Source: Fervidobacterium islandicum (lineage in GTDB: Bacteria > Thermotogota > Thermotogae > Thermotogales > Fervidobacteriaceae). From it: a DNA stretch of 40,000 nucleotides. Positions 95 through 4,534 of this stretch are shown in pieces. The position numbers and the translations under genes are program-made. The stretch lies in the NCBI RefSeq assembly GCF_041504555.1, contig NZ_CP126499.1; one strand, given 5' to 3'. The notes under the pieces were generated by a model. The model made no database searches. It was not told where the DNA came from and was given only the letters and a program-made list of their open reading frames with translations. Position 1 is the stretch's first letter. The number at the start of each line of letters is the position of its first letter.

Positions 95-3000
95 TTACAT
101 CCACCTCCAAAAGAAGGAATATTCTGTTCTTGGATGCGTTTCTTTGTATTCGCGCAAAAGTTCGATTTTTTCCAGCACTTTAAATCCGCTTTCAAAAGAC
201 ATGCATGTGAGCGGTCCTCGTAAGTCAAAATTGCGTACATACTCGCTCACAGATTTTATATTCTTTTTATTTTTCAAGTACTGAGCATAGTTATACAAGA
301 GCTCGAAATACAGTGATTTTAAATCAAGATAGGAAAGCAAAGAGACTTTTTCGTCGTTCATATCTTCTTTGAATTTATTCTCAATTTTGTTTAAGAATTC
401 CACGTAATCTTCGCTTTCAAAGGCAGCTTTGAAAATGCTGTGCCTGACTTTTGCCATGTCAAGTGCTTTTCCACCTGTGTGGAAGGTTTCCATCGATAGT
501 TGTGTACCGCGCTCTCCAATAACGTGACCGGCTGATAAGCCTATGTATTCATTGTTTTTGAAGTTAGAAATTCTCGAGACATCAAATCCGCAGTATTTGG
601 AGCTGACGTAGTGTTTATTATCTTCTTCAACTATCGCTGGAGACAAGATGGTAAACTTATCCGGTATGCTTCCTACATCGCTAACGAAAATTTCCTTACC
701 GTCTACCTTTATCCATCTGTAAAGGAATCTTTTTTTGTCAAAGGTGTCAGGTAGTTTGGACATATCTATTTCATGCTCAATGTATTCGCTAATACCATCG
801 CTTGTCTGTATGGTACCTAAGAATTCGACAAGCCATCTTGTAAAGTATCCAGCATCTGCTACTTTTAGTTTTTTGTCCATCAATGTTCTTCTTGCGCGCC
901 TTACTAAGCCTTTTTCTGGATCAAAGTATTCGTTAATTTCCAATCCATCAACAAACCCTTTTTGATAGGTTGTGTTTTCGACTTCTATTTTTTGATTCAA
1001 CTGCACATATTGTTTGTCGTTTCCACGACATTTGGACTTTGTGATTGAGTCAAAACTACCGGCCGAGTCTTTTATTTCGAATACGGTCAATGTCAGGTTT
1101 TCTTTTGTTGCCTTCTCAAGGTATTTATTTATTAGTTCCTCTTTGATGAATGATTTTATCTTATCATATTCTCCATTTGCCGCGTATTCTCGAATTTTTT
1201 TGTCTACTTCTTCCCGCAGTTTTTTCTTGTTGCCATTTTCAAGAGTATAATATCCATAGACAAAATCCTGGTCGATTGAATAATCCAGCTCACCATTACC
1301 TAATCTGAATGGGTTTCTGGAAGGTAACATGCTTCGCAGTTCTTCTTTGATTTCTTCAGTTTGTTGTGATGGATATATTACTGCCATTGTGTCACCATCG
1401 AAATCGGCGTTGAAACCTTCACAGACAGTTATCGGAAGTCCTATCGTGTAGTTATGCCAAAAGATAGGTCTGAATGCTTGGAGTGAGTGTCTGTGTATTG
1501 AAGGTTGACGGTTCAAAAGTACGTAGATATCCTCAAATTTCGCTATTTCATTCAGCACGTTAGCTATTTCTTTTCTACTTTTTATATCACCTTTTAACGC
1601 ATTCTCAATTTTGTCTTTTGGAATGTTTCTGTCGATCAGTTTGTTTTCAAACCATGTAATACCAAAGTCGACCGGTATTACTGCTGTATCGATATCAAGT
1701 TCGACGTTATACTCGTCTAATCTTGGAAGTGGCATTGGGGAGATAACGGTTCGGCCTGAGTAGTGAAGTCTTCGAGCAATAACTATGTTTCTAAGGTATC
1801 CGTCTTTGGTCATGAGTCTTTCTTTTATGTTATCATCAATTGTTGAAGAACCATTCTCAACAAGGTCTCGGAAGAATGTTGCTTCGTTATTCACAAAAAT
1901 TTCTATAGTTTTGTAAATCTCAGGACTTTCTGTTTGACTGAACACTTTCTTTTCTAATTCTTTGAATTCATCGATAGTTGAAAGTAAATGGTACGCTCTT
2001 GTTTTTTTGAAGGTATCGAACGAATTTCTGACATATTTCAGTAAGTCTGCCTCGTTTGAAGTTTCTGCACGCTGTTTTAGTATGTCTTTAAGTTCTTCAA
2101 AGAACTTGATAATGGAGTCCTGCAGGTCATTTTGCTTTGAAACTTGTAAGAATTTGTAGAGTCTGTAGATTTGATAAGATGACTTTGAGTTGAATTTGTT
2201 TTTTCTGATTGAACCTACAATTACTTCTTGTACGTACTTTCTAAATAGTTCTTCGTCTTCATCCTTAGTTGTGTTCTTTCCATCCAAACCTAAGAGTGGT
2301 TCGAATATTGCAGTCATGTAGTTTTCAGTTCTTAGTCTAATTCCAAAAAGCTCTTCTAAAATCTCTCCGAACCTCTCTTCTGGATATCTGAATAGTCGGG
2401 AGAATCTTTTGTCACTTTTAAGCGATTCTGGTAAGTTTTTCTGAGCAAAAAGTTTTGTGAGGTTTTTGTTTGCGTATGAGTATAAGCACCAAAATTCAAG
2501 TTCTCCAAATCTTTGGCCACCATTTCTTGCTCTTCCTTTCAGCGGTTGGTTTGTCAACGCACTTTCGTTAGCAATTGAAACAACGTGGATTTTGTCTCTT
2601 ACGCAGTGGTCAAGCCTGAGCATGTATTGATATCCTACGTTTAACCACCAAGTATTTGAACCGTACATTACTTTGAATCTACCATAATCATCTGCACCTA
2701 TTGACTTTAAAGCATTTCTTAATTCTTCTAATTTGTCAGAGATTTTCTCAAGTGGCGAAACGGGGATTTTTATTTTGTCGAAGTTTGCATGTTTCAGGGC
2801 AATTGAAATGTGCGTTTCATATAGCTGTCCAAGGTTCATTCTTGAAACAACACCAAGAGGGCTTAGTATTACTTCTACCGTTTTCTTTTCACCATTAACC
2901 TCAACCTGCGGCATTTCTTCGTCTGGTAGAATAGCAGAGACCGTCCCTTTGTTGCCATGACGACCCATGAGTTTGTCTCCGACTTCAAGTGGCTTTTCGA

Positions 3001-4534
3001 CCTCAAATTCTATGTAAAAGGTTATTACATGTTCACTATTTACAGGAGATTCGGAAGGATATTCGGGAGTTAAGGGCAGGGATTTGATTTTTGCATTGTA
3101 TCGTCCTGTGTATGTGTAAATCTTTTCTGGTTTGTTTGATTTTCCTTTGTAGACCTCAAACAAAACTTTACCAAAATGTACAGACTCGCCTTCAGATACT
3201 TTCCACCTGATTCTTCTAACGTCTTCTTTTTGACCTTTGTAAACCCATTCACCATTTATTATTTTAGGTGATTTATCATTTACCACTTCAACTATATATT
3301 TTTCTTTTTCAATAACTCTTGCCTTCATTTTTTGTGCAAAGCTTTCTGAAACAACTATTCCATCCTCGAAGTTCAAACCTTTGAATAGGCCATAAGCCAC
3401 GAGTGCGTTGACACCAACATTTTCTTGTTCATAACCTGTTTTTACAATAGGTTCTTCTGCTCCTACCACTCTTATCGCTTGTTTTAGGTTCTTTGAACCC
3501 ATCAACATTCTTGCAGCATCAGAATGTGGGATGAATGGTATTTGTTTTGTGGCAAGCGAGAGGAAGGTATCGTCGAACTGTTTCAGTTTTTCTTCCAGGC
3601 TACTGGCATTCAATAGTTTAGCGTTGAATATTCGCAATTTTTCGAAATCGTACTCCAAGTCATCTGAATCTACTAAAGTTAGTGTAAGACCTATTTTATC
3701 CGATTCTGGTGTTTCAAGAAGGTCAACAATCCCTATGTGGCTTTCATGTGGATATCGCTTTTCAATGTTAACTTTCTCATTTGGATAAACTACTTTTCTT
3801 GGTTCTGACAGTTCTTCAACTTTATTCAAATCCTCTGCGAAGAAAAAGTTTGGGATTTTTTGCGCTATGTACTTACCTTTTTTGTCGGTATAATATTTGA
3901 AGTACAAAACTCCGTATTTAGTGCTTAATGTGTTCAAAAGTCTCTGTTTGATCTCAAGTGTCCTCTCGCTTCTTTTATCTGTAATTACATCCAGTATCAA
4001 GTTCGCAAGGATTGATAAAAATGCCAGGTAGTATCCTTGAAGTACTATGCTTTTTGACAAGTCAAGTGTGTTAATATTGGGGATATTCTCATTTTCAAAC
4101 TCTGCATAGTTGATATCTTCCTCAGACTCCACACTCGTTGTATGGTTGGCCTTTAAAAATTTATCAAAAACTACAAAAGGTGAATAAAGCTTTTTGTTAA
4201 GAAAATGAAAGTATCCGTCTTTATCTGGTAAAAGCAAGAGTATATCTTGAAGATTTAGTTCTCGTGCTTCTGAACTTTTGGTATACAAGTTATCTATTCT
4301 TATATCGTATAAATATCCAATGAGGTTCATCTTAGAATCAAAAATTTTATCTACAAGTTCATAGGTTACGTTTGCTTTTGTTAAAGATTTGGCAAATGCA
4401 ATAGCATCGCTATAGTTCTTGCTATCTTCGCTGGTTACTTCGTAAATTTTCGATGCAAAATATGAGAAGAATGATTTTGTCATGGTTTGGAGTTTTTCGC
4501 TATCGAGCTTTGAAAACTGCTCAAACAGTCTCAT
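95..4534 (-). CDS. Fused RNA polymerase beta/beta-prime-like protein (single-chain two-barrel RNAP homolog), 1479 aa
   Basis: Beta-type motifs: RYPHESHIGIVDLLETPESDKIGL (nt 3686-3754), AARMLMGSKNLKQA (3476-3514), NFEDGIVVSE, GDKLMGRHGNKG (GRHGNKG at 2945-2965), SPLGVVSRMNLGQ, NGGQRFGELEFW (2489-2524). Beta-prime-type motifs: RRLHYSGRTVISP (1736-1774), LLNRQPSIHRHSLQAFRP, NADFDGD (1391-1411), bridge-helix-like RRTLMDKKLKVADAGYFTRWLVE (824-901), trigger-loop-like GHVIGERGTQLSMETFHTGG (470-529). SD GGGGAGTGA lies upstream of the ATG, and the start overlaps the cas6 stop. Confidence 0.85.
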   Translation of the reverse strand: MRLFEQFSKLDSEKLQTMTKSFFSYFASKIYEVTSEDSKNYSDAIAFAKSLTKANVTYELVDKIFDSKMNLIGYLYDIRIDNLYTKSSEARELNLQDILLLLPDKDGYFHFLNKKLYSPFVVFDKFLKANHTTSVESEEDINYAEFENENIPNINTLDLSKSIVLQGYYLAFLSILANLILDVITDKRSERTLEIKQRLLNTLSTKYGVLYFKYYTDKKGKYIAQKIPNFFFAEDLNKVEELSEPRKVVYPNEKVNIEKRYPHESHIGIVDLLETPESDKIGLTLTLVDSDDLEYDFEKLRIFNAKLLNASSLEEKLKQFDDTFLSLATKQIPFIPHSDAARMLMGSKNLKQAIRVVGAEEPIVKTGYEQENVGVNALVAYGLFKGLNFEDGIVVSESFAQKMKARVIEKEKYIVEVVNDKSPKIINGEWVYKGQKEDVRRIRWKVSEGESVHFGKVLFEVYKGKSNKPEKIYTYTGRYNAKIKSLPLTPEYPSESPVNSEHVITFYIEFEVEKPLEVGDKLMGRHGNKGTVSAILPDEEMPQVEVNGEKKTVEVILSPLGVVSRMNLGQLYETHISIALKHANFDKIKIPVSPLEKISDKLEELRNALKSIGADDYGRFKVMYGSNTWWLNVGYQYMLRLDHCVRDKIHVVSIANESALTNQPLKGRARNGGQRFGELEFWCLYSYANKNLTKLFAQKNLPESLKSDKRFSRLFRYPEERFGEILEELFGIRLRTENYMTAIFEPLLGLDGKNTTKDEDEELFRKYVQEVIVGSIRKNKFNSKSSYQIYRLYKFLQVSKQNDLQDSIIKFFEELKDILKQRAETSNEADLLKYVRNSFDTFKKTRAYHLLSTIDEFKELEKKVFSQTESPEIYKTIEIFVNNEATFFRDLVENGSSTIDDNIKERLMTKDGYLRNIVIARRLHYSGRTVISPMPLPRLDEYNVELDIDTAVIPVDFGITWFENKLIDRNIPKDKIENALKGDIKSRKEIANVLNEIAKFEDIYVLLNRQPSIHRHSLQAFRPIFWHNYTIGLPITVCEGFNADFDGDTMAVIYPSQQTEEIKEELRSMLPSRNPFRLGNGELDYSIDQDFVYGYYTLENGNKKKLREEVDKKIREYAANGEYDKIKSFIKEELINKYLEKATKENLTLTVFEIKDSAGSFDSITKSKCRGNDKQYVQLNQKIEVENTTYQKGFVDGLEINEYFDPEKGLVRRARRTLMDKKLKVADAGYFTRWLVEFLGTIQTSDGISEYIEHEIDMSKLPDTFDKKRFLYRWIKVDGKEIFVSDVGSIPDKFTILSPAIVEEDNKHYVSSKYCGFDVSRISNFKNNEYIGLSAGHVIGERGTQLSMETFHTGGKALDMAKVRHSIFKAAFESEDYVEFLNKIENKFKEDMNDEKVSLLSYLDLKSLYFELLYNYAQYLKNKKNIKSVSEYVRNFDLRGPLTCMSFESGFKVLEKIELLREYKETHPRTEYSFFWRWM

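Follow-up and report, generated by a model that had tools for sequence, protein, structure and literature searches.

What is the gene of an RNA polymerase (RNAP) doing at the end of a CRISPR (clustered and regularly interspaced short palindromic repeat)-Cas operon? The question is raised by a stretch of 40,000 nucleotides (nt) from Fervidobacterium islandicum (RefSeq assembly GCF_041504555.1, contig NZ_CP126499.1), referred to here as the window, in which a compact, single-chain RNAP with both beta-like and beta-prime-like parts is encoded directly behind genes of a type III-A system. The RNAP gene belongs to a three- to four-gene cassette that has been adopted by CRISPR loci of the Thermotogota. 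Taken together, the evidence makes the cassette probably an accessory, CRISPR-linked and regulated RNAP module, a reading that is held with moderate confidence.

The RNAP open reading frame begins with ATG, ends with a stop codon at 95-97 and specifies 1479 amino acids (aa), a single chain of ~170 kDa from a family found in thermophiles. Along the chain it matches the Pfam families RNA_pol_Rpb2_3 (aa 232-287, 1e-5), Rpb2_6 (aa 345-670, 1.5e-43), Rpb1_2 (aa 975-1069, 2e-18) and Rpb1_5 (aa 1197-1363, 2e-11). A sequence search of the PDB finds bacterial beta subunits with E values as good as 2.5e-42 and beta-prime subunits as good as 1.6e-28. Judged by sequence comparison, these motif and domain matches are far beyond chance. 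An earlier, sequence-only reading of this DNA had listed the signature motifs of both catalytic subunits in one 1479-aa chain, and all are present, in the same order and within a few nt of where they had been placed (Table 1).

The same reading had considered the protein too short to be a housekeeping rpoB-rpoC fusion. Such fusions, of the Helicobacter and Wolbachia type, comprise ~2800-2900 aa. The NCBIfam scores bear the point out, as they lie far below the cutoffs of the models for rpoB (199 vs 801 bits), rpoC (138 vs 963) and the rpoB-rpoC fusions (PRK09603, 219.6 vs 5372; PRK14844, 213 vs 4632). The compact RNAP is therefore a homolog and not an ortholog of the housekeeping enzyme, and by these profiles it is a member of the bacterial beta/beta-prime core superfamily that stands outside the housekeeping orthologous groups. 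The family consists of ~40 protein clusters at 90% identity, with lengths of 1230-1570 aa. All named sources are Thermotogota (Fervidobacterium, Pseudothermotoga, Thermotoga, Marinitoga, Tepiditoga, Petrotoga, Oceanotoga, Kosmotogaceae and Mesoaciditoga). Database entries carry the label 'hypothetical protein' or an automatic 'DNA-directed RNA polymerase', and PADLOC 2.0 has a model for neither the RNAP nor the partner protein described below.

The residues expected at an active centre are retained throughout the family. In 33 homologs with 32-55% identity to the window protein, G518, D519, K520, R524, G526, N527 and K528 of the beta barrel are invariant, as are the residues of the GGQ.GE.E.W motif and, in the bridge helix and trigger loop, D1219, K1220, K1221, G1228, T1231, R1232, G1339, E1340, T1343, Q1344, M1347 and F1350. 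The residues A1042, D1043, F1044, D1045, G1046 and D1047 around the magnesium-binding triad are invariant in the same 33 members and also in a 37-sequence alignment with distant relatives; the catalytic residues as a whole are still invariant with these four more distant relatives added. Invariance at such low overall identity is the pattern of an active enzyme and not of a decoy, and the RNAP is predicted to be catalytically competent, a prediction drawn from the alignment and the structural model.

A profile of the 33 family members was aligned to Escherichia coli RpoB and RpoC for domain mapping. Retained from beta are residues 513-580 (the fork region), 656-717, 793-824, 1005-1162 and 1187-1312, segments which represent the double-psi barrel of beta together with its anchor, and the C-terminus of beta. 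Of beta-prime, residues 317-515, with the switch-2 region and the NADFDGD barrel, are retained, and so are 663-941, which comprise the F-loop, the bridge helix and, as far as the SI3 site, the first half of the trigger loop, the sequence GE.GTQL.M.TFH.G included. Beta lacks 1 to ~510 (lobes and protrusion); from beta-prime, residues 1 to ~316, with the zipper, the zinc finger and the clamp helices, are missing, as are 516-662, SI3 and the greater part of the jaw and C-terminus. The best explanation of this pattern, as far as the alignment goes, is that the RNAP arose from a bacterial-type beta/beta-prime core by fusion and loss of peripheral domains.

Two family-specific regions stand where peripheral domains would be. 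The N-terminal region takes the place of the beta lobes and protrusion, and its positions conserved within the family include P118, V120, G166, Y167 and P227. It had been suspected that the first ~150-250 residues resemble nothing familiar, and aa 1-231 indeed have no match in Pfam, NCBIfam or PDB sequences. The second region, a helical linker, stands where the zipper, zinc finger and clamp helices of the beta-prime N-terminus would be, the alignment to E. coli beta-prime starting at 317. Here the earlier description of a ~200-aa unmatched helical linker is only partly upheld: the stretch of ~aa 690-745 is the beta C-terminus, and a helical segment of ~150 aa then follows. This segment displays eight helices in the structural model, with a predicted local distance difference test score (pLDDT) of ~82-93, is poorly conserved and differs in length between genera.

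An AlphaFold model of aa 230-1429, built on the 37-sequence alignment, has a mean pLDDT of 89.7 and a predicted template modelling score (pTM) of 0.87. In a Foldseek search of the PDB with this model, the top 50 matches are all bacterial or plastid beta (chain C) or beta-prime (chain D) subunits, with E values of 1.5e-22 to 2e-20; the single model matches both kinds of chain. Profile and fold searches, which had been suggested as a check, thus agree in aligning the motifs to the catalytic domains of beta and beta-prime. The model also displays a beta-rich insert between the NFED and GDK motifs (model residues ~176-285). Against predicted viral structures, giant-virus RNAP subunits are the best matches at 6e-19, and phage RNAPs follow at 1e-9 to 1e-7.

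The genetic surroundings of the family were compared in loci from exact-protein look-ups of ten diverse members, in 14 loci from a genome scan (the family members among the matches listed, hence at least 14) and in 12 loci from a metagenome scan. Housekeeping rpoBC dominates the 80 loci listed by the genome scan, ~15 of which belong to the family. Wherever downstream DNA suffices, the order is RNAP, a small partner protein and an AAA+ ATPase, with genes that usually overlap or lie a few nt apart. The metagenome scan was seeded with the N-terminal domain of the ATPase alone, and RNAP and partner genes are found in all of its 12 loci that have enough sequence. Recovery of the other two genes from the ATPase domain indicates that the three are strictly co-inherited.

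The partner gene is cut by the end of the window, and the identical Logan contig L086 carries it in full, encoding 281 aa (protein P0121). Partners range from 175 to 314 aa across loci, with ~260 aa typical, and belong to no Pfam or PADLOC family. They evolve fast and have a common layout, a basic glutamine-rich N-terminal tail followed by an acidic tract and then a folded part. A hidden Markov model (HMM) of the partner, searched against 1.84 billion representatives, finds just 17 proteins, all of 243-301 aa; a word-indexed search returns only the partner itself, and a combined profile of the partner and the ATPase N-terminal domain returns three proteins. With 17 relatives in an exhaustive search the partner is an orphan, from which no function can be transferred.

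The third protein, of 430-490 aa, matches PF00158 (Sigma54_activat) at 1e-37 to 1e-42, together with AAA_lid_14. It displays the signatures of bacterial enhancer-binding proteins (bEBPs), namely the Walker A sequence GETGTGKS, FLDEI and R.DLYYRF. At the position of the GAFTGA loop, 16 of 17 sequences have G[AS][FY][TS][GD]x, as in GAFTGA, GAYTGA, GAFTDA and similar forms. By these motifs the cassette ATPase is of the bEBP, or sigma-54-activator, class. It has no C-terminal helix-turn-helix (HTH) or other DNA-binding domain, and its best PADLOC model, RtcR_PspF2 of the RtcR/PspF CARF_AAA_HTH group, matches the AAA+ part only. The N-terminal region of ~200-250 aa consists of an alpha/beta core of ~110 aa followed by a conserved linker helix, EYEEKGKFEK; a PDB profile search with this domain finds designed proteins only.

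Searches with Pfam, PADLOC and hhalign find neither a CARF nor a SAVED domain in the RNAP, the partner or the ATPase. The most frequent fourth gene of the cassette, however, encodes a CARF protein of 900-980 aa (PADLOC CARF7--CARF_CYTH_HD, 1.5e-301), which is predicted from its domains to be a cyclic-oligoadenylate sensor. An example lies at 7249-10008 of locus L090, and homologs are found in L081, L001, L006, L010, L011, L014 and L182-L186, where the gene often overlaps the RNAP start. These proteins display an ErKFL-type start of the CYTH domain and an invariant HD-type block (..HSQRHS.., HDLGH); candidate activities are those of a triphosphatase, a cyclase or a nuclease.

In the window, the end of cas6 and the start of the RNAP gene overlap by 14 nt on the same strand, and the G+C content is 0.36-0.37 for the RNAP gene and 0.35-0.39 for the cas genes. 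Gene order and composition therefore agree with what had been read from the sequence, an RNAP gene right after csx1-like and cas6 genes and similar to them in base composition. Recurrence of this arrangement among homologs had been proposed as a check, and the cassette is found again next to cas10, csm or cmr genes, cas6, CARF genes and arrays in many Thermotogota lineages. As a raw count, cas or CARF genes or CRISPR arrays lie within 10 kb in 21 of 26 dereplicated Thermotogota loci, at least 11 of them with cas10, cmr or csm. The remaining five (L005, L007, L012, L003 and L013) all have truncated flanks. The neighbours are type III-A systems in the window, L091 and L187; type III-B systems in L081, L085, L006 and L014; short-cas10 or RAMP systems in L093, L001, L011 and L087; an MpAgo-cas1/cas2 block in L083, L177 and L178; a type I-B system in L092; CARF or CARF7-CYTH-HD genes, in part accompanied by cas6 or by an array at the flank, in L090, L004, L185, L010 and L089; and cas2 only in L008.

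The coupling is closest at the start of the cassette, which overlaps, or lies no more than ~11 nt from, cas6 in the window, an NYN gene in L087, a CARF gene in L089 and CARF-HD genes in L090, L091, L001 and L182-L186. In L187 one strand carries, in order, CARF-HD, cas6, RNAP, partner, AAA+ ATPase, CARF, cas10, csm2, csm3, csm4 and csm5, and in L093 the cassette is situated between RAMP genes and cas6. CRISPR arrays begin 230-770 nt past the ATPase gene in six lineages. Among the Thermotogota the cassette accompanies CRISPR-Cas loci, for the most part of type III, as an ancillary module. With 21 of 21 informative loci and coupling at the level of the operon, the association goes well beyond loose co-location, though CRISPR loci are common in the phylum.

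Several loci carry further genes of interest beside the cassette. In the Fervidobacterium-type loci L083 (3921-9826), L177 (162-4092) and L178 (3-4460), the cassette diverges from a cas1/MpAgo-type Argonaute block that comprises cas1, Argonaute, a radical SAM gene, cas2 and an AEP-TOTE primase-like gene and is flanked by arrays. In Tepiditoga and Petrotoga a DarT-NADAR or DarT-Macro pair (L085 8576-9901 and L090 4743-5763) separates the cmr or cas genes from the cassette. DarT is the DNA ADP-ribosyltransferase of a toxin-antitoxin system.

Two distant fused RNAPs outside the Thermotogota, in L094 and L095, are part of a similar cassette that has no cas genes nearby. In L094 the RNAP gene (P0042, 1569 aa) is followed by genes for a 315-aa protein and a PF00158 ATPase; the Thermotogota profiles give weak matches to its partner and to the N-terminal domain of its ATPase. 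In L095 the order is PF00158 ATPase, a REC-HD-CE protein, RNAP (P0044, 1520 aa) and a 304-aa protein. The HD-CE protein of L095 has a Response_reg (receiver) domain where the Thermotogota versions have CARF7. In this locus (5744-15489) the N-terminus of the ATPase is receiver-like and its GAFTGA loop is degenerate, and the genes adjoin TrwB and SLT conjugation-type genes. As these relatives lack cas genes, the CRISPR link is a property of the Thermotogota branch, and the module is older and more autonomous than that link. We infer that a REC-to-CARF7 swap of the input domain wired the module to cyclic-oligoadenylate signalling.

Members of the RNAP family were also sought in mobile elements, since confinement of the homologs to prophages or plasmids had been named as a possibility that would speak against a CRISPR association. 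None is present in the scan of IMG/VR viral contigs or the tblastn search of PLSDB plasmids, which find only distant or housekeeping RNAPs. The IMG/VR contigs L101, L108, L113, L128, L142 and L144 contain single long stretches with matches to the beta as well as the beta-prime part (query residues ~172-1397, 24-33% identity) and fall outside the present family; these stretches indicate that other fused RNAP families exist in viral metagenomes.

How such a module might act can be proposed from its parts. Lacking the beta-prime clamp helices and other surfaces for sigma-70 docking, the RNAP is probably unable to use host sigma factors, and this loss points to the partner as an initiation or locking factor of its own. 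The partner would be dedicated to the RNAP and would hold it in a locked complex with DNA; the ATPase would use ATP and its GAFTGA-like loop to remodel this complex into an active one, in the way bEBPs act on the sigma-54 holoenzyme. Type III target recognition, through cyclic oligoadenylates and the linked CARF proteins, would license the ATPase step, and infection would set off a burst of RNA synthesis on DNA templates that is private to the module. Candidates for the template are defence genes or the CRISPR array, or else invader DNA. This fuller proposal, of type III immunity with a private transcription apparatus in which an RNAP is held inactive with an orphan initiation factor and switched on by an ATPase after a cyclic-oligoadenylate signal, is put forward tentatively, as plausible but short of probable. 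The specific sigma-54-like activation step, proposed by analogy, is a possible and rather doubtful component of it.

A number of observations weigh against this proposal or narrow its scope. The partner, on which much depends, is not recognisably homologous to sigma-54, to sigma-70 or to any other known protein in the Pfam, PADLOC, PDB profile and HMM searches; a Sigma54 Pfam domain is absent at E values up to 10, and PDB profile matches do not rise above compositional noise. Its structural model, from a three-sequence alignment, is unreliable (pLDDT 52, pTM 0.40), and Foldseek finds nothing in the PDB below E = 0.8. With neither homology nor a reliable model nor a fold match, the role of initiation factor is a guess. 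A CARF identity of the ATPase N-terminal domain was considered and rejected, as hhalign against the CARF7-CYTH-HD alignment gives a probability of 0.2; direct action of cyclic oligoadenylate on the ATPase would accordingly be conjecture. The orientation of arrays relative to the cassette, assigned by the ATGGAAAC 3'-end rule, is mixed, four being co-directional and two convergent; transcription of the adjacent CRISPR array by the RNAP, a candidate function, is neither supported nor excluded by this. CRISPR loci are abundant in Thermotogota genomes, which bears on the raw count of 21 in 26. Finally, one Thermotogota locus lies by a type I-B system and three by MpAgo-cas1/cas2, and together with the two distant relatives these suggest that the link is perhaps to CRISPR or defence generally and not to type III signalling.

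The distant relatives would also fit a less likely reading, that the cassette is an independent defence, selfish or regulatory element and only shares variable islands with CRISPR-Cas systems. The neighbours range over III-A, III-B, short-cas10, I-B, MpAgo-cas1/2, DarT-NADAR and kinase/PP2C/VWA genes; moreover, the 9.4 kb upstream of the cassette in L005 consist of housekeeping genes, and the L095 cassette stands beside TrwB/SLT conjugation-type genes. Against this reading, the start of the cassette overlaps cas6 or CARF genes on the same strand, or lies no more than ~11 nt from them, in several lineages, and in L187 and L093 the cassette is placed between type III effector genes and cas6. The CARF7 sensor is, besides, the most frequent extra gene, and CRISPR components accompany all 21 loci with informative flanks. 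An RNA-templated polymerase in the manner of QDE-1-type enzymes, amplifying target or guide RNA or making double-stranded RNA for type III or Argonaute pathways, is improbable, although multisubunit RNAPs are able to use RNA templates and bacterial RNAP copies 6S RNA. The cassette does adjoin MpAgo-cas1-cas2 in three lineages, and the alignment to E. coli suggests that the parts which grip downstream duplex DNA, the beta lobes and the jaw, have been lost. Yet the nearest relatives in sequence and fold are DNA-dependent bacterial RNAPs, with no QDE-1-type enzyme among the top matches, the fork, switch-2 and bridge-helix elements that handle the DNA template are kept, and a bEBP-type ATPase suggests the opening of promoter DNA.

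Could the ATPase instead act on the host enzyme? Ordinary sigma-54 regulation, in which it would activate host sigma-54 RNAP for the cassette or cas genes and leave the compact RNAP aside, would suit an ATPase that clearly belongs to PF00158 and has a GAFTGA-like loop. There are known bEBPs that lack a DNA-binding domain. Sigma-54 is reported to be present in 'only some' Thermotogae (PMC3162934) and absent from eight of 11 finished Thermotogae genomes (PMC3372290). A scan of the window for -24/-12 promoters with up to two mismatches finds 19 matches vs 16.2 expected, which is the level of chance. The scarcity of sigma-54 and the lack of a promoter signal in the window argue against this explanation, and the strict co-inheritance of ATPase and RNAP, outside the Thermotogota too, makes it very improbable. 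Hardly credible at all is a phage or plasmid RNAP of YonO type, prophage-borne, or a housekeeping rpoB-rpoC fusion. Single-chain RNAPs with two barrels are typical of phages and plasmids (PMC5467207, PMC2919709), but every named source of the ~40 clusters is a Thermotogota genus, IMG/VR and PLSDB hold no member, and the window, with dnaK and reverse gyrase, is chromosomal. The fold matches to viral proteins (6e-19 at best) fall behind those to bacterial ones (1.5e-22), and a trigger loop is present, unlike in YonO; as for a housekeeping fusion, the score reaches ~4% of the cutoff of the fusion model. The accessory, CRISPR-linked module is the reading retained.

The remaining features of the window are listed in Table 1. 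The array and csm6 lie upstream of the type III-A operon, and the window is otherwise chromosomal, with reverse gyrase, dnaK and recF-like genes; phage genes are absent from it. Just upstream of cas10 is a pair of genes for a VWA-domain protein and a MoxR-type AAA+ protein, parted from cas10 by a strong bidirectional hairpin. VWA genes are also found near the RNAP cassette in L087 and L089, with genes for Ser/Thr kinase-FHA, PP2C and FHA proteins. Further upstream is an IscB-type element (17813-19343) on the plus strand, formed by a HEARO RNA, which is taken here to be the IscB guide (omega) RNA, and directly after it a gene for an RRXRR and HNH protein with a PLMP-like N-terminus. An IS200/IS605 pair of tnpA and tnpB-like genes precedes it, and the 3' end of the tnpB-like gene overlaps the HEARO RNA at its start; insertion of the IscB element into the IS200/IS605 element, or fusion of the two, is possible. 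Between the IscB element and the CRISPR array is one of two open reading frames that have no Pfam or PADLOC match. The genes for a GAF and HD_5 (HD-GYP-like) signalling protein and an S9 prolyl oligopeptidase look like ordinary chromosomal genes beside the CRISPR region.

Table 1. Features of the 40,000-nt window and of the compact RNAP; nt positions refer to the window, aa positions to the RNAP
Feature	Position (nt)	Position (aa)	Strand	Basis or remark
Partner gene, first 29 codons (MSIRLSKKHEQKVKQTQELKPRLKPSENI...)	1..89		-	Start 5 nt past RNAP stop; cut by window end
Single-chain beta/beta-prime RNAP gene	95..4534		-	Open reading frame list, translation, Pfam, PDB sequence matches, model, Foldseek
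Family-specific N-terminal region	3842..4534	1-231	-	Outside structure model
Beta-like half: fork region, beta double-psi barrel with reduced flap insert, beta C-terminus	2300..3841	~232-745	-	HMM alignment, Pfam
HESHIGIVDLLETPESDKIGL		262-282		Beta-type motif
AARMLMGSKNLKQA		339-352		Beta-type motif
NFEDGIVVSE		387-396		Beta-type motif
GDKLMGRHGNKG, basic active-site motif of beta barrel	2948..2983	518-529	-	Invariant residues
GGQRFGELEFW		671-681		Beta-type motif
Helical linker	1835..2299	~746-900	-	Model, alignment
Beta-prime-like half: switch-2, beta-prime double-psi barrel, bridge helix, trigger loop, short C-terminal domain	98..1834	901-1479	-	HMM alignment, Pfam
RLHYSGRTVI		921-930		Beta-prime-type motif
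LLNRQPSIHR		1005-1014		Beta-prime-type motif
NADFDGD, catalytic Mg-binding Asp triad	1394..1414	1041-1047	-	Invariant residues
Bridge helix (~aa 1212-1240) through trigger loop GERGTQLSMETFHTGG (aa 1339-1354)	473..901	~1212-1354	-	Aligned to E. coli beta-prime 765-941
cas6 (286 aa)	4521..5381		-	Pfam CRISPR_Cas6 1.3e-18, Cas6_N 2e-9
csx1, CARF-HEPN ancillary RNase (422 aa)	5362..6630		-	PADLOC CARF2 CARF_HEPN 1e-34, Csx1/Csm6 4e-16; no Pfam match
Second, short cas6 (200 aa)	6803..7405		-	PADLOC Cas6 2.8e-69
Terminator-like hairpin after csm5	7633-7603
Type III-A effector genes cas10, csm2, csm3, csm4, csm5 (transcription order)	7658..13594		-	Pfam
csm5	7658-8800		-
cas10	11081-13594		-	HD domain and GGDD palm motif visible in translation
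Bidirectional hairpin	13915-13944
VWA-domain protein (457 aa) and MoxR-type AAA+ (338 aa)	13945-16353		-
IS200/IS605 tnpA (Y1 transposase, 135 aa) and tnpB-like OrfB_IS605 (332 aa)	16470-17860		+
HEARO RNA	17813-18030		+	Rfam RF02033, 161 bits, full length
RRXRR + HNH protein (430 aa)	18051-19343		+
Open reading frame (327 aa)	19673-20656		-	No Pfam or PADLOC match
CRISPR array, 16 identical 36-nt repeats	21478..22659		.	16 exact matches vs 0 expected by chance; Tandem Repeats Finder
csm6 (CARF, 6H, HEPN)	23268..24707		-	Pfam Csm6 HEPN 4e-14, Csm6_6H 8e-7, CARF_Card1 6e-4
S9 prolyl oligopeptidase	25924-27939
GAF + HD_5 (HD-GYP-like) signalling protein	28185-29924		-
Open reading frame (364 aa)	36475-37569		-	No Pfam or PADLOC match

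Type III immunity depends on transcription of the invader, and its ancillary effectors known so far comprise nucleases, proteases, membrane proteins and sigma factors set free on signalling. A CRISPR-linked beta/beta-prime polymerase, its family and the cassette are absent from those parts of the literature on type III accessory genes, CRISPR-linked genes, CARF/WYL proteins and non-canonical, phage-encoded or single-chain RNAPs that were available, a passing mention in other parts being possible. If the reading of gated transcription is true, a dedicated polymerase would be a new class of type III CRISPR output; it would be the first RNA polymerase associated with CRISPR, and its ATPase the first activator of bEBP type with a target other than the sigma-54 holoenzyme. 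It could explain how, with the host polymerase shut off or the target silent, cells go on making defence RNA or expose invader DNA. The pairing of such an ATPase with an RNAP, in a phylum that mostly lacks sigma-54, makes bEBP remodelling of other initiation complexes testable. The enzyme is also a naturally minimised thermophile RNAP, a model for minimal multisubunit-type transcription and possibly an orthogonal expression tool.

Of the known systems, the bacterial RNAP core is the closest in the polymerase itself. The compact RNAP has both double-psi barrels, the NADFDGD, GDK..GRHGNKG and GGQRFGEME.W motifs, the fork, a reduced flap insert, switch-2, the bridge helix and the trigger loop, and its best sequence and fold matches are to this core. 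It differs in being one chain of 1479 aa, as against ~2750 aa for E. coli beta plus beta-prime, in its private 231-aa N-terminus and helical linker, and in being encoded in a CRISPR locus with a partner and an AAA+ protein of its own.

YonO of phage SPbeta is likewise one polypeptide with both barrels and is accessory and not housekeeping. YonO has few residues in common with multisubunit RNAPs and no trigger-loop homology (PMC5467207), which sets the compact RNAP apart from it. YonO is, furthermore, phage-encoded and transcribes late phage genes, whereas the compact RNAP matches beta/beta-prime down to 1e-43 and is absent from the phage collections. A YonO-type identity was accordingly rejected, on the strong beta/beta-prime homology, the trigger loop and the absence of a phage context. 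The identity of a QDE-1-type RNA-dependent RNA polymerase was rejected on the bacterial and plastid origin of the top 50 PDB fold matches and the presence of an insert in the flap region. The products of pGKL2 Orf6 of a yeast killer plasmid and of NCgl1702 of Corynebacterium are natural Rpb2-then-Rpb1 fusions with about half of the sequence deleted and with private inserts at the N-terminus and the junction (PMC2919709). By description they resemble the compact RNAP in the order of fusion, the trimming and the private inserts; unlike it, they are enzymes of a eukaryotic cytoplasmic plasmid or of mobile elements, with no AAA+ and partner cassette and no CRISPR context.

On the side of regulation, the cassette recalls sigma-54 and its bEBPs (NtrC, PspF and RtcR) in an ATPase with PF00158, lid and GAFTGA-like loop. 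The glutamine-rich basic tail and acidic tract of the partner recall regions I and II of sigma-54, as a resemblance only. The differences are that the cassette has no sigma-54 homolog, that its ATPase lacks an HTH domain, that the window shows no -24/-12 signal and that the presumed target of the ATPase is a private fused RNAP and not the host enzyme. The CalpL-CalpT-CalpS system, where a sigma factor is set free by type III signalling (PMC11229360), offers the nearest parallel in logic, with ancillary genes beside cas10 loci and, as is proposed here, type III signalling coupled to a transcription response. The cassette has no protease, SAVED domain or anti-sigma factor of that kind; there, a sigma factor redirects the host RNAP, whereas here it is the polymerase itself that is ancillary.

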